Below, piece after piece: positions 21,623 to 26,035 of a stretch of 36,263 nucleotides of DNA. The DNA is from an uncultured bacterium (GTDB lineage: Bacteria > Krumholzibacteriota > Krumholzibacteriia > WVZY01 > JAKEHA01). Position numbers and translations under genes: made by a program. Numbering within the stretch: position 1 is the stretch's first letter; the number at the start of each line of letters is the position of its first letter. A model generated the notes under the pieces. The model had not been told where the DNA came from. It ran no database searches and was given only the letters and a program-made list of their open reading frames with translations. The DNA lies in the NCBI GenBank assembly GCA_964500785.1, contig CAZCQM010000002.1, positions 1-36,263 on the forward strand, in the 5' to 3' direction.

Positions 21623-24600
21623 ATGGAATCGTCCGCCCGCGCATTCCGCCACAATCTCGAGCCGCTCGAAGACGACCGGGTGGCCGGCCCCTGGCACACG
21701 GCGGGATACGTCGACCTCGTGAGCGAACGGCGTTACCTCGCCAGCTGGATGACCGTCGACGCGGGCAACCGGGTCGACTCCGACGTCTTCGCCTTTCGCT
21801 GCGACGCCGCATCCGCCATCGCACCCGATACCTGCCCCGCCGCGCTCGAGATCACGGCGGCCAACGGGCGGGTGGAGATTCTCGCTCCATACGGGCACCT
21901 GGTCGAGCACCGGGCGCTGACGGACGAATCGATCGCCGACGCCCTGCGCTCGCTTCTGGGGACGCTCGCCACGCTGGAATCGCACGCGTTCTACGCCTGT
22001 CACCTCGCACCGGAGTTCGTGTGCGTCGATGATCAGGGTGCGGTCGTCATCGTGCCCGCCGCGTACGCGTTCCCTCCCGATGCATTCGGCACGACGCCGG
22101 CCGACGCGCGCACGCACGTGCGCGTGGTCGCACAGCTCGCCGAGCGCCTGGCGCGTCACGCGGGGCCGGATCTGGCCGCGCGCCTCCGTTCGTCCACGGC
22201 GGACGTCGCGTCGGGAGCGATCGATTCGTCGGCCGCCCTGGCGGCGGCCCTGTTCGGAGGTGCCGCCCCGGCGGCGCGCGCGGCGGAGACCGCGGCGCGG
22301 TTCGACCCGGCCGAGGTGACGCGCGCGGTCGAGGGATCGCTGCTGGTGGAAGTGGCCGGTCCCGGGCGCAGCGGACGCTCGACGGCGCTGGCACAGATCG
22401 CGGACCGGTTGCGAGGCGCGGGGGTTCCCGTGCACTGGATCGACGAGTGGGATTCGGCGGCCGCCGCGCGGCGGAAGGGCTCCGGGAAGGACGGCGTGCG
22501 GAGCGCCGTATGGATCGCAGACGACGCCGACGACCGCCCACTTCTTCACGCCCTGCTCCTCGACCACGTGTCCGGCATGCATGATCGTGCGGGCGCGGGA
22601 CTGGTCGTGGGCACACGGGGCGACGACGCGGACCCGTTCGCGGCGCAGCTGCGTGCGCGGGCGGCGCGCGGCGTGTATACGGTTCGCCTCGACGGCGCCG
22701 GCGTTGCGGACGATCCGCGCACCGCGTCCATCGAGCCGCTGGAGCCCGAGGCGCGCCAGGTGCTCGAGCTGGTTTCCGTCGCGGGGATCCCACTCCCCGT
22801 CGACGTCGTGCTCTCGGTCTTTCCCGGTGCGGACCGCGGCGTGCATCGACAGATTTTCGCGCTCGCGGGCGCGGGGTTGCTGCGCGTGGAGACGCGGAGG
22901 ATTCCCTCGACGGCGAGTGCGTCGCTGGTGCTGCGCGTTCCGAGCGCGTCGCTGCGGCGGGCGATGTACGACCGCATCCCGGAGTCCCGGCGCTGCAACC
23001 TGCACCGCACGGTGGCGCGCATCGCCGACGAGCGGGGTACCTTCCCGCCCATGTTCGCCTTCGAGCACCTCGTGCTCGGGGACGAGGGGGCCGAGGCTGC
23101 GGCGCGCGCGGCGGCGTTCTTCAAGGATTCGACCCGGGCGCAGCGGGCGCCGTTCATCGAGGCCATCCTGCGCGACGTGATAGAGGACGGACTCGACGAC
23201 GCGCTCGCCTATGGAGACCGCATGGCCCTGCTCGTCCGCCTGGGCGACGACCTGCTTGCGCGCGGACGCCAGAAGGACGCCGAGACGATTCTCACGCGGG
23301 CCAAGTCGGTCCGCGCCACGGGGGACGACATCCGCGCCAACGCCCCCCTCGCCAGCGAAGCGATGCGGCTTCTGGCCGACGCGTGGGCGGCGCGCGGGCA
23401 GCTGCGCGAGGCCCTTGGGCTGCTGGCCGATACGCGCGAGGACATCGCGCCCTACCTGACGCTGGCGGACCAGGCGCGCCTGCTCAACGACATCGGCTGG
23501 CTCCAGTACCGCCTGGGCGATTACTCCAGCGGCGTCGATTCCTGCAAGTTCACGATCACCAGCCTCAATCCCAATGAGCACCCGCTGGTGGTGGCGCAGG
23601 CGCTGAATCTCATGGGCGTCATCGCGTTCAATACTAGCCGCTACGACGAAGCCATCTCGTATTACGAGCAGAGCGCTTTCCTGCGCGAACGCGAGGGCGA
23701 CCTGAACGCGCTGGCGGGGTCCTACAACAACCTCGCGCTCGCCTACCAGTCCAAGGGCGAGTACGACAAGGCGCTGGCCTACCTGGACCGGAGCCTCGAG
23801 ATCAAGGGGCGCCAGAACAACGAAGCCGGAATCGCGGGCGGATACCTGAACCTGGCGGTGCTCCATCTGGAGGTGCACAACTTCGACGAGGCGGAGCGCA
23901 GGTGCCGCGAAAGCCTCCGCATCAGCTCGCGCCTGGGGCTGGCGCAGATGATCGCGGAGAACCTGAACACCCTGGGCGATATCGTGTTCGCGCGCGGCCT
24001 GCTGGACGACGCGGAGGACTACTACCGGCGGTCGCTCGAGCACGCCCGGCGCCTGTCCACCGTGAGCGAGGAGATGGGGGCGCACAAGCGGCTGGCGAAA
24101 CTGTACATCCGCAAGGGCCGTCACGACGACGCGCGCGTCGCGATCGACGAGGCCACGCGGCTGGCGCGCAAGGTGGGTTCCAAGTACGAGCAGGCGCAGA
24201 CGGAGGAGATCTCGGGCGACCTGCTCTCGGCCCAGGGCAACCGCGCGGAGTCGATCGACCATTTCGACAAGGCGACGACGCTCTACGCCACGCTGTCCAA
24301 GCATCGCCTGGCCGCCGCATGCCTGGCCAAGGCGGGGCTCGCTCACGCGCGCGGCGGCAACACCCTGGATGGCAAGCGCTACCTGGACCGCGCCCAGGAC
24401 CTGATCAAGTCGCAGATCGGACACGAGATCCCCGAAGAGATGGTGACGCTGCAGCAGACGCTGCGCGAGAACCCGCTTCCCGGCGGCGTGCCGGGGACGG
24501 AATCGCAGAAGCTCCTGTACGCGTTCTACGAGCTGTCGTCGCTCTCCGATTACGCCGACGACCGCCGCGCATTCTTCCGGCGGGTCATCACCGTGTTCCG

Positions 24601-26035
24601 CGATCTCGTCGGCGCGACGACGTGCGTTCTGGCCGTGCGCACCGAGGACGGCGGTTTCATCGGCGTGGACGCCGCCGGGGAAGAAGAAGCGGTCGCCGAC
24701 CCGACCTCACGGGCCGTGTTCGCCCGGGCCCTTCAGCTGGGTACCGTCCTCCACTGCGGCTCGCCGGAGATCAAGGACATCCTCGCCGGCGCACCGCCCA
24801 CCGACCCCGAGACGCGCCTGGTCGTCGTGCCGATGAAGTCGATGGGCGAGGACCTGGGGTGCGTGGTGCTCACCGTGCCCCCGGCGGCGGTGCCGCGCTC
24901 CAAGGAGGACCTGGACTTCATCTCCTGCATCGGTCGGCACGTGGCCGGCGACCTGCGCCTGAGCTTCCACCTCGACGAGCGCTCTCGCAAGGAGCAGACC
25001 ATGGCGCGCGGCATCGAAGGCCTGGGCGCGCAGGTCGTCGATAAGCACCGTTTCCAGTCCATGATCGGGCGCGACGAATCGATGCAGAAGGTCTTCCACA
25101 TCGTAGAAAAGATCAAGGACATGGACACCGGTATTCTCATCAACGGCGAGAGCGGCACGGGAAAGACCGCGTTGGCGCGTACCATCCACAACAACAGCCC
25201 GCGCCGGCGCCACGTCTTCCAGTCCATCCACTGCGCGGAGATCCCCACCAGCCTGCTGGAGAGCGAGCTGTTCGGCCACGAGCGTGGCGCGTTCACGGGT
25301 GCGGTCCAGCGCAAGCTGGGACGGTGCGAGGTCGCCGACAACGGCACCGTGTTCCTGGACGACGTCAACGCCATGCCCATGGAGACCCAGTCGAAGCTGC
25401 TGCACTACCTGGAGACGAAGAGCTTCACGCGCGTCGGCGGGACGCAGAAGATCTCCACCGATGTGCGCATCATCGCGGCCAGCAACGAGGACCTGGAGAC
25501 GCTGGTCAAGCAGGGGCGCTTCCGCGAGGACCTGTTCTACCGCCTCAAGGTGATCCAGATCGAGCTTCCGCCGCTCCGGGACCGCAAGGACGACATGATC
25601 CTGATCGCCCAGGAGTTCCTGAAGAAGCGCTGCCAGGCGCAGGGCAAGACGCTCAAGCGTCTCTCCACCGAGACCATCAAGCTCTTCCAGAAATACCGGT
25701 GGCCGGGAAACGTACGCGAGCTGCAGAACGTTCTCGAACAGATCGTGCTCCTGTGCGACGATGACATCGTGGAACCGGCATCGCTTCCGGAGGATTTCCT
25801 GCGCCGCGCCGCGGGCGGGGGCAAGTCCCAGTGGCAGTCGCTCGAAGACCTGGCCCGGCAGATGGTGCAGAGCGGGAATTATTCGGTTTCCAATCCGCTC
25901 ATGCCCCAGGTGGAGGCCCTGCTCGCGAACAAGATGGCGGAGCACGCGGACAACAAGGGCAAGGCGGCGACCCTGCTCGGCATCACCAAGCCGACCCTCT
26001 ACACGAGGTTGCGCGGCTACGAGCGGCTGAAGTAA
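21623..26035 (+). CDS. 1470-aa sigma54-dependent transcriptional activator with pseudokinase-like, degenerate P-loop NTPase, TPR and GAF-like N-terminal modules
   Basis: ORF 21572..26035, with ATG 21623 after GGAG. C-terminal bEBP core: GESGTGKT, ESELFGHERGAFTGA, RFREDLFYRL and WPGNVREL. Fis-type HTH: AATLLGITKPTLYTRL. Upstream modules: FYACHLAPEFVCVDDQGAVVIVPAAYAF (kinase catalytic-loop-like, key residues lost), EVAGPGRSGRST (Walker A with R for K), and many TPRs (SYNNLALAYQSKGEYDKALAYLDRSLEI). Confidence 0.9.
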   Translation: MESSARAFRHNLEPLEDDRVAGPWHTAGYVDLVSERRYLASWMTVDAGNRVDSDVFAFRCDAASAIAPDTCPAALEITAANGRVEILAPYGHLVEHRALTDESIADALRSLLGTLATLESHAFYACHLAPEFVCVDDQGAVVIVPAAYAFPPDAFGTTPADARTHVRVVAQLAERLARHAGPDLAARLRSSTADVASGAIDSSAALAAALFGGAAPAARAAETAARFDPAEVTRAVEGSLLVEVAGPGRSGRSTALAQIADRLRGAGVPVHWIDEWDSAAAARRKGSGKDGVRSAVWIADDADDRPLLHALLLDHVSGMHDRAGAGLVVGTRGDDADPFAAQLRARAARGVYTVRLDGAGVADDPRTASIEPLEPEARQVLELVSVAGIPLPVDVVLSVFPGADRGVHRQIFALAGAGLLRVETRRIPSTASASLVLRVPSASLRRAMYDRIPESRRCNLHRTVARIADERGTFPPMFAFEHLVLGDEGAEAAARAAAFFKDSTRAQRAPFIEAILRDVIEDGLDDALAYGDRMALLVRLGDDLLARGRQKDAETILTRAKSVRATGDDIRANAPLASEAMRLLADAWAARGQLREALGLLADTREDIAPYLTLADQARLLNDIGWLQYRLGDYSSGVDSCKFTITSLNPNEHPLVVAQALNLMGVIAFNTSRYDEAISYYEQSAFLREREGDLNALAGSYNNLALAYQSKGEYDKALAYLDRSLEIKGRQNNEAGIAGGYLNLAVLHLEVHNFDEAERRCRESLRISSRLGLAQMIAENLNTLGDIVFARGLLDDAEDYYRRSLEHARRLSTVSEEMGAHKRLAKLYIRKGRHDDARVAIDEATRLARKVGSKYEQAQTEEISGDLLSAQGNRAESIDHFDKATTLYATLSKHRLAAACLAKAGLAHARGGNTLDGKRYLDRAQDLIKSQIGHEIPEEMVTLQQTLRENPLPGGVPGTESQKLLYAFYELSSLSDYADDRRAFFRRVITVFRDLVGATTCVLAVRTEDGGFIGVDAAGEEEAVADPTSRAVFARALQLGTVLHCGSPEIKDILAGAPPTDPETRLVVVPMKSMGEDLGCVVLTVPPAAVPRSKEDLDFISCIGRHVAGDLRLSFHLDERSRKEQTMARGIEGLGAQVVDKHRFQSMIGRDESMQKVFHIVEKIKDMDTGILINGESGTGKTALARTIHNNSPRRRHVFQSIHCAEIPTSLLESELFGHERGAFTGAVQRKLGRCEVADNGTVFLDDVNAMPMETQSKLLHYLETKSFTRVGGTQKISTDVRIIAASNEDLETLVKQGRFREDLFYRLKVIQIELPPLRDRKDDMILIAQEFLKKRCQAQGKTLKRLSTETIKLFQKYRWPGNVRELQNVLEQIVLLCDDDIVEPASLPEDFLRRAAGGGKSQWQSLEDLARQMVQSGNYSVSNPLMPQVEALLANKMAEHADNKGKAATLLGITKPTLYTRLRGYERLK

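Follow-up and report, generated by a model that had tools for sequence, protein, structure and literature searches.

Gene and module order of the activator

The window analyzed here is a 36,263-nucleotide stretch from an uncultured Krumholzibacteriota bacterium (contig CAZCQM010000002.1, assembly GCA_964500785.1), and its subject is the gene at 21623..26035 on the forward strand, which encodes a sigma-54 activator with an unusually long N-terminal region. The open reading frame (ORF) begins with ATG at 21623, nine bases after a GGAG sequence, and ends with a stop codon at 26033-26035, giving a product of 1470 aa. The third-position GC content (GC3) of the gene was 0.89, within the range usual for genes of the window, and the local GC content rose to 74% at 22001-23000. 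The product is a genuine bacterial enhancer-binding protein (bEBP). Its modules follow in the order of a predicted pseudokinase, an apparently trimmed STAND (AAA_16-type) NTPase, a TPR sensor, a GAF domain, a sigma-54 AAA+ domain, and a Fis-type helix-turn-helix (HTH). We consider this architecture, together with the ancestry described below, very likely to be correct as read here.

The original prediction, made from the sequence alone, had described a textbook bEBP module preceded by a dead-kinase-like segment, a degenerate P-loop, TPRs, and a GAF-like block. Every motif it quoted was found in the translation at the place given. The kinase catalytic/activation-loop-like stretch FYACHLAPEFVCVDDQGAVVIVPAAYAF occupies aa 123-150, the Walker-A region EVAGPGRSGRST aa 243-254, and WIADDADD aa 297-304. 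The C-terminal motifs are GESGTGKT (aa 1175-1182), GAFTGA (aa 1222-1227), VFLDDV (aa 1243-1248), RFREDLFYRL (aa 1299-1308), WPGNVREL (aa 1360-1367), and the HTH (aa 1445-1466). The predicted bEBP module was matched consistently by Sigma54_activat, AAA_lid_14, and the NtrC, PrdR, and FlbD models. A PADLOC scan of the activator returned bEBP models (RtcR/PspF-type) and generic TPR models only. An Avs-like anti-phage STAND defence protein was considered and rejected, as no defence STAND model matched and the neighbourhood consists of vertically conserved housekeeping genes.

Orthologues and kinase-bearing relatives

An identical protein (P0057) has already been recorded, with the window as its entire contig. 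About 20 full-length orthologues of 1466-1484 aa were identified at 63-74% identity, with two at 50%. They came from independent NCBI, ENA, JGI, and Logan assemblies on contigs of up to 145 kb and, in CAVTNQ010000002.1, 2.06 Mb, and included full-length copies in loci L003 and L006. When 1.84 billion representative proteins were searched exhaustively by HMMER with a profile of the N-terminal region, only 44 matched, and the full-length ones among them (1477-1552 aa) all had an identical architecture. The source names were Candidatus Krumholzibacteria or Latescibacteria/Latescibacterota metagenome-assembled genomes (MAGs), which NCBI places in the FCB group. Outside MAGs that bear the labels Krumholzibacteria or Latescibacteria, no member of the predicted pseudokinase branch was found. 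Word-indexed searches with the N-terminal 620 aa and a 23-sequence profile returned only two partial orthologues and distant AAA_16 proteins; recovery of the family required the full-length query and the exhaustive search of representatives.

These sequences bear directly on the concern that the ORF might be an assembly chimera or a fused pseudogene, which is now vanishingly improbable. Two database orthologues are cut within the gene by contig ends, and the stretch of 74% GC lies inside it. However, uninterrupted orthologues of 1466-1552 aa with the same domain order were present in independent assemblies, on contigs of up to megabase length, and they refute a misassembly.

Conservation differed strongly among modules. 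Among main-clade orthologues, the AAA+ domain was 84-95% identical and the TPR region, second only to it, 75-83%. The GAF domain (54-73%) and the winged helix with its arm (51-69%) were intermediate. The kinase-like domain (42-55%, 3 invariant columns) and the P-loop core (40-56%, 2 invariant columns) were the least conserved. Sequence comparison thus indicates that the putative former enzyme modules evolve fastest yet are never lost, and that the TPR sensor is strongly constrained.

Nine or more relatives of 1600-1770 aa carried Pkinase, AAA_16, TPR, GAF, Sigma54_activat, and HTH_8 in one polypeptide, with Pkinase E-values of 1e-28 to 1e-34 and AAA_16 E-values down to 1e-22. They share the module order of the window protein and are collinear with it over the winged helix, TPR, GAF, AAA+, and HTH regions. 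In a BLASTP comparison, P0079 and the window protein were collinear across aa 616-1466 (E 1e-75), and their winged helices aligned as well (E 1e-4). The relatives differ in having an intact Hanks kinase with VALK, H(R/G)D, and DFG motifs, a full-length AAA_16 domain, and the canonical Asn/Asp-Glu site in the AAA+ domain. They are also 130-300 aa longer and lie in unrelated neighbourhoods that lack the FHA/kinase operon found near the window gene. One cluster came from Thermoanaerobaculia MAGs (e.g., P0087), in which the proteins carry no other name than "sigma 54-interacting transcriptional regulator" or "Nif-specific regulatory protein".

The original prediction knew of no fusion of a kinase-NTPase-TPR array to a GAF-sigma-54-HTH output. 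The array is rare and uncharacterized, and a literature search found no paper on an architecture in which a kinase or pseudokinase is fused to a sigma-54 activator. It is not unique, since the same array occurs behind an intact Pkinase in public protein sets. On this sequence comparison, the window family is best read as a degenerate branch of a wider, uncharacterized kinase-STAND-bEBP group. The activator does not represent a new kind of system but a divergent and degenerate example within a rare, uncharacterized class.

The N-terminal region resembles a protein kinase without catalytic residues

The first 235 residues gave no Pfam match of any kind, including Pkinase. An AlphaFold2 model of aa 1-235, built from a 26-sequence alignment, reached a pLDDT of 89.4 and a pTM of 0.85, compared with a pLDDT of about 40 for aa 1-530 modelled from only 3 sequences. 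When the aa 1-235 model was searched against the PDB with Foldseek, 1787 matches were obtained at E<=1e-3, and the top 50 of these were protein kinases without exception, among them CDK2, p38, BTK, and PknB. The highest TM-scores (TMq 0.57-0.58) belonged to the intracellular pseudokinase domain of Mycobacterium tuberculosis Rv3910 (PDB 3otv, 3oun), and one of the matched Rv3910 entries is a complex with the FHA domain of FhaA.

Sequence profiles pointed the same way at lower significance. With the 26-sequence domain profile, 11 of 13 sub-threshold PDB sequence matches were kinases, and every alignment shown spans the alphaE/catalytic-loop stretch. A PDB sequence search with a 3-sequence N-terminal profile gave no matches. 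Comparison with small kinase alignments by hhalign was collinear across the entire domain (P 6e-4 to 0.02), in the register that the original prediction had proposed. In this register, the beta3 Lys is replaced by S41, the HRD Asp by H127, the catalytic-loop Lys by A129, the catalytic-loop Asn by F132, and the DFG Asp by P145. The Gly-loop is absent, and aa 1-235 contain no Lys at all. The residues at the catalytic-equivalent positions differ among family members, and W24, D31, R59, and P145 are almost invariant.

The predicted structure of this region is therefore kinase-like, as the original prediction had anticipated for a dead-kinase module. Because the model has a kinase fold, the catalytic residues are replaced, and no Pkinase match exists, aa 1-215 (21623..22267, forward strand) are assigned as a predicted pseudokinase that keeps the kinase fold and has lost all catalytic residues.

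A shortened STAND NTPase follows the kinase-like domain

The segment aa 236-560 (22328..23302, forward strand) was identified as a shortened STAND/AAA_16 domain by hhalign, profile searches, and the family alignment. Its Walker A reads GPGRSGRS, with Arg252 in place of Lys, and its Walker B reads WIADD (hhhhDD). The Pfam model nSTAND_NTPase5 matched weakly over the P-loop at aa 236-282 (E 1.6e-4), and AAA_22, nSTAND3, and NACHT matches were found in relatives. When the family profile of aa 230-560 was compared with the AAA_16 domains of PknK-like proteins and of kinase-bearing relatives, the match had a probability of 99.4% (E 1.9e-21) and spanned both Walker motifs and the winged helix before entering the helical arm. 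In a database of 5.8 billion sequences, the N-terminal-half profile detected AAA_16 proteins at E 1.5e-7 to 8.5e-4; the effectors on these STAND proteins were XRE, BTAD, OmpR-type, LuxR-type, or cyclase domains. Compared with its AAA_16 relatives, the domain is short of about 150 residues. The gaps fall around the helix that follows beta2 and precedes Walker B and around the lid, located after sensor 1 and ahead of the winged helix, and both segments appear to have been deleted. By these criteria of homology, the degenerate P-loop noted earlier belongs to what appears to be a trimmed STAND (AAA_16-type) NTPase.

The state of the nucleotide-binding site bears on a competing explanation in which only the kinase is dead. 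The STAND domain would then still be a working switch whose Arg-containing P-loop binds ATP/ADP, and an inducer at the TPRs would drive nucleotide exchange and multimerization as in MalT. The Walker-A glycine G246 and the Walker-B D300 are invariant in the family alignment, and the Ser/Thr following position 252 and the Walker-B Asp pair are kept across the family. The Walker-A Lys position holds Arg in the window protein and most close relatives, with normal GKT/GKS in the close relatives P0004, P0071, and P0074-76. In contrast, the same position drifts from Lys to Arg or Asn (the latter in P0027) and is lost in P0018, the beta2-Walker B helix and the lid segment are missing, and the P-loop core is among the fastest-evolving modules. 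A working switch is thus possible, although we consider it unlikely.

The Lys-to-Arg change at Walker A was also observed as GSGRT or GEGRT in the AAA_16 domains of P0078, P0083, and P0091, proteins whose kinase is intact. From its distribution among sequences, Arg in place of this Lys seems to recur and to be tolerated in such STAND domains, and its presence in kinase-active relatives counts in favour of a working switch.

Alternatively, the kinase-like domain and the STAND remnant might be baggage without a regulatory role, with control exerted by the GAF domain in a NifA/NorR-like manner and perhaps by the TPRs. The loss of every enzymatic motif, and the position of these two modules as the least conserved in the protein, fit such a view. 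However, both modules are full-length and in frame in every member, down to 15-21% identity, and covariation was sufficient for a confident AlphaFold2 fold from just 26 sequences. Near-invariance of the four kinase-domain residues named above also speaks against dispensable sequence, and we regard pure baggage as quite improbable.

The TPR, GAF, and HTH modules

The TPR/MalT-like repeat sensor covers about aa 561-940, i.e. about 380 aa (23303..24442, forward strand), as delimited by Pfam and the identity profile. The expected TPR stretch was recovered by Pfam TPR_12 (1.1e-31) and TPR_MalT (6.6e-16), beginning from about aa 647.

The GAF domain lies at about aa 965-1110 (24515..24952, forward strand). 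In the window protein, GAF_2 matched aa 980-1108 below threshold (E 1.8e-5, 25.4 bits against a cut-off of 28.6). The same segment passes in relatives: P0034 scored 34.3 bits for GAF against a cut-off of 22.4, and PF01590 or PF13185 was recorded for P0071, P0072, P0074, and P0075 (PF01590 for P0072, P0074, and P0075). The NCBIfam NifA model spans aa 967-1388, where NCBIfam scores are far under the equivalog cut-offs. The block first described as GAF-like is therefore a sub-threshold GAF_2 match in the window protein with counterparts above the cut-off in relatives.

The Fis-type HTH occupies about aa 1440-1469 (25940..26029, forward strand). The NtrC, PrdR, and FlbD models of NCBIfam extend to aa 1464-1467, and orthologues match HTH_8.

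The sigma-54 AAA+ domain carries a His/Asp glutamate switch

The sigma-54 interaction AAA+ domain with its lid covers aa 1147-1399 (25061..25819, forward strand). Sigma54_activat matched aa 1147-1314 with an E-value of 3.9e-65 (219.1 bits against a cut-off of 20.2), and AAA_lid_14 matched aa 1319-1399. PDB sequence matches to NtrC1, FleQ, and PspF had E-values of 1e-54 to 2e-73. Walker A (GESGTGKT), GAFTGA, the arginine fingers R1301 and R1307, and the sensor II residue R1365 are intact; the three arginines correspond to R162, R168, and R227 of PspF. For this mapping, the numbering of the PspF sequence was verified against residues named in PMC4132715; the PDB search pairs query residues 7-237 with PspF 7-238.

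The original prediction had pointed out that Walker B reads FLDD instead of FLDE. This change is present and fixed throughout the main clade. The residues D1246-D1247 replace D107-E108 of PspF, and the glutamate-switch pair H1203/D1247 replaces PspF N64/E108. The His/Asp pair was found in 12/12 main-clade members and the canonical Asn/Glu pair in 16/16 outgroup bEBPs. From the aligned residues, the Walker-B/switch change is assigned as a putative catalytic-site variant in which the AAA+ fold is retained. Since the Asn-to-His change accompanies the Glu-to-Asp change, compensation at the switch partner is suggested. The His/Asp switch probably makes the AAA+ domain a slow or differently gated ATPase. 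Neither the pseudokinase/Arg-P-loop scaffold nor the His/Asp glutamate switch was found described in the literature searched.

The E108D variant of PspF has lowered ATPase activity and fails to activate on duplex DNA while still engaging the closed complex (PMC4132715). Together with the fixation of the Asp-Asp sequence in the main clade, this would fit an AAA+ domain that cannot open promoters alone and that serves as a sigma-54-binding brake or needs a partner subunit, in the way that HrpR depends on HrpS. However, the paired Asn-to-His change looks compensatory, GAFTGA, both arginine fingers, and sensor II are intact, and no other module of the protein is conserved as strongly as the AAA+ domain. 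In addition, no second bEBP gene was seen in the conserved neighbourhood. A brake or an obligate partner is therefore a distinctly improbable explanation of the Asp substitution.

The two parts of the switch site lie at window positions 25226-25243 and 25349-25366. In the most divergent subclade (P0027, P0034, and P0043), Walker B reads FLNE, an Asp-to-Asn change, and the equivalents of Asn64 and Glu108 are kept.

Gene neighbourhood

The activator lies between a zinc-ribbon gene and an NIF3/YbgI gene (26051-26815). The gene order is TPR-TPR-FHA-Metallophos phosphatase-Hanks kinase/PEGA, then GT9 and RsgA on the opposite strand, followed by EIIA-zinc ribbon-activator-NIF3-TPR membrane protein. 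This order was kept at every examined locus, even in the most distant members, where N-terminal identity fell to 21%. The wider neighbourhood is of a housekeeping kind, with genes for thymidylate kinase, HU, queuosine synthesis, RsgA, NIF3, a SurA-like protein, and an Nth-like protein.

The original prediction had also placed a real Hanks kinase/FHA operon behind a sigma-54-type promoter in the window. Pfam confirmed its genes, all on the forward strand: an FHA protein at 14536-15891, a Metallophos phosphatase at 15905-16636, and a Hanks kinase with a PEGA domain and intact motifs at 16640-18475. The promoter element also exists and is described in the following section. Kinase orthologues lie about 5 kb upstream of the activator in L003, L006, and L007, and the operon is also present in the distant loci L008 and L009.

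Two genes immediately upstream of the activator, on the same strand, always accompany it. One encodes a PtsN/FruA-like EIIA protein (20636-21118, by Pfam) and the other a CdsZ/FlgZ-like small zinc-ribbon protein (21115-21474), for which NCBIfam scores were below cut-offs (8.9e-10 against the CdsZ model). CdsZ belongs to the FlgZ/HP0958 family, which binds sigma-54 in other bacteria, and PtsN is usually located in rpoN operons. By this analogy, the immediate neighbours may also be sigma-54-related.

Promoters and candidate targets

A candidate sigma-54 (-24/-12) promoter, TGGCATGGAATTTGCC (TGGCAT-N5-TTGC), was found at 14465..14480 on the forward strand, 57 nt upstream of the FHA start. In the window, L003, L006, L007, and L009, the exact pattern TGGCAY-N5-TTGC has a single match each, in every case 45-57 nt ahead of the FHA gene. 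L008 has CGGCAC-N5-TTGC instead, 50 nt upstream of the FHA gene. Because the intergenic flanks cannot be aligned in distant loci and the element is kept, the -24/-12 element itself appears to be under selection.

A second, weaker sigma-54-like element, CGGCACGGACTATGCT, is located at 12358..12373 on the forward strand, 92 nt upstream of the TPR gene 12465-13754. It is syntenic in L003 (696), L006 (584), and L007 (624), so that it is shared by the four closest loci. When 2 mismatches were allowed, the sigma-54 consensus matched the window 36 times where 30 matches were expected, which is no enrichment, and the pattern is informative only in a stricter form combined with synteny.

A conserved box, CGTTGCAWWCCGC, was observed at 14358-14370, about 100 nt upstream of the -24/-12 element of the FHA gene, and also in L003, L006, and L007. 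Its distance is compatible with an enhancer. The box is absent from the distant loci and from the second promoter, and it is not repeated elsewhere above chance. No inverted repeat was common to the loci, and an enumeration of palindromes in both promoter regions of all loci revealed nothing shared. As no shared upstream activator site was found, the link between the activator and these promoters consists of proximity and co-conservation only. The FHA-phosphatase-kinase operon is thus a candidate target of the activator, with a chance that we place a little short of even.

The activator gene itself has a sigma-70-type promoter (TTGTAA-16 nt-TAAAAT with TG) at 21525..21560 on the forward strand, as indicated by a promoter scan and an 8-locus alignment. 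An AT-rich near-palindrome of 15-17 bp (GTAAAATAATTTAAC; GTAAAATAWTTTAAC; TGGTAAAATAATTTAAC) at 21544-21560 overlaps its -10 element. The near-palindrome was invariant in the window, L001-L004, and L006-L008 and had one mismatch in L009, in a set of loci whose proteins share no more than about 20-50% identity in their N-terminal halves. Each locus contains exactly one copy, and the near-palindrome does not recur at the sigma-54 promoters. Its conservation is consistent with an operator, perhaps for autoregulation, or a lineage-specific promoter element, and it may be either.

A third good -24/-12 match, TGGTACGTGGGTTGCT, was noted at 4908-4923 on the forward strand, 46 nt from the ATG at 4969 of the ORF 4969-6336. 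This ORF encodes 455 aa with no Pfam family and a weak IS1-transposase-like match.

Proposed mechanism of the activator

The best overall explanation of these results, to which we assign a probability of roughly 0.6, is that an enzymatically dead N-terminal scaffold controls the AAA+ output, with targets at the nearby -24/-12 promoters. The N-terminal 940 residues would no longer be enzymes and would act as a sensor and oligomerization scaffold like those of MalT, PknK, and AfsR. A ligand or partner bound to the repeat domain might free the nucleotide-binding domain for self-association in the STAND manner. The scaffold and the adjacent GAF domain would then decide whether the C-terminal AAA+ domain forms an active hexamer, and this hexamer would remodel sigma-54 RNA polymerase. 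The likeliest targets would be the pair of conserved -24/-12 promoters situated 7-9 kb upstream, foremost that of the FHA-phosphatase-Hanks kinase operon. By analogy with Rv3910, PknB, and FhaA, the loop could be closed by the stand-alone kinase and the FHA protein acting on the pseudokinase.

In its full form, this would be a phylum-wide phospho-feedback circuit of Krumholzibacteria/Latescibacteria: the activator, with its His/Asp-variant AAA+ motor, would drive the operon, the kinase would phosphorylate the pseudokinase or its variable activation-segment loop, and the FHA protein would dock there and set assembly. We regard the full circuit as doubtful. Phosphorylation and FHA binding of the window activator are pure hypothesis by analogy.

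Several points weigh against the scaffold explanation or parts of it. The kinase fold rests on a predicted structure with modest TM-scores (0.4-0.58), and the sequence-profile P-values quoted above give it weak support. GSGRT in some kinase-bearing relatives means that Arg in the P-loop may be compatible with function. No upstream activator site shared by the nearby sigma-54 promoters was found that would connect them directly to the activator, rpoN is not within the window, and these genomes may encode other bEBPs. The conserved gene order, being among housekeeping genes, may reflect slow rearrangement of genomes in this lineage and not functional coupling. Finally, the direction of evolution from kinase to pseudokinase is one that we infer from an unrooted comparison.

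Comparison with known systems

PknK of M. tuberculosis (Rv3080c) combines a kinase, an AAA_16 domain, and a MalT-like TPR region, and MalT/LAL proteins combine AAA_16, a TPR sensor, and a DNA-binding output, so that a repeat sensor acts through a nucleotide-binding oligomerization domain on transcription. The PknK-like proteins P0039, P0041, and P0045 were the nearest non-bEBP matches of the N-terminal profile. PknK phosphorylates a separate regulator, and the output of MalT/LAL proteins is a LuxR HTH, whereas that of the window protein is a GAF-gated sigma-54 AAA+ motor behind a predicted dead kinase and a trimmed NTPase.

With NifA, NorR, and FhlA, the activator shares a GAF domain directly before the AAA+ domain and a C-terminal Fis-type HTH. 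It differs from them by about 960 extra N-terminal residues and the His/Asp switch. In NifA and NorR, the AAA+ domain is inhibited proximally by GAF. For NorR, PMC2941729 describes repression of the AAA+ domain by the GAF domain.

Rv3910 (MviN/MurJ), the best structural match, is a bacterial pseudokinase that serves as a docking platform in a system with an FHA protein and a Hanks kinase. Its pseudokinase is handled by PknB and FhaA and is fused to a membrane flippase, whereas the predicted pseudokinase of the window is fused to a transcription factor.

The inputs described for sigma-54 activators are, to our knowledge, receiver, GAF, PAS, V4R, FHA, CARF, and PRD domains, and we know of no kinase or pseudokinase with STAND among them. 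Kinase-STAND-bEBP fusions would place enhancer-dependent transcription and Hanks-type Ser/Thr signalling, both large signalling systems of bacteria, within a single polypeptide. The window family and its kinase-active relatives would form a before-and-after pair in which an enzyme decays to a scaffold and the output module is retained. Furthermore, the fixed His/Asp pair is a natural experiment on residues that have been studied only by mutagenesis of PspF. The conserved -24/-12 promoter before the kinase operon offers a target open to testing in a phylum that has hardly been studied by experiment. If the feedback circuit were true, it would be a direct Ser/Thr-phosphorylation input to sigma-54 transcription through a pseudokinase receiver.

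Other features of the window

A queuosine-precursor cluster at 7119-9684 on the reverse strand encodes a radical-SAM protein, QueC, and a 6-pyruvoyl-tetrahydropterin-synthase-like protein, and it appears to be unrelated to the activator. A cold-shock (CspA-like) gene at 13862-14104, also on the reverse strand, is divergent from the FHA operon. In the upstream or leader region of this gene, an inverted repeat with 11-bp arms (GGAATCCACCG...CGGTGGATTCC) was observed at 14131-14172, and a similar repeat is present in L003.

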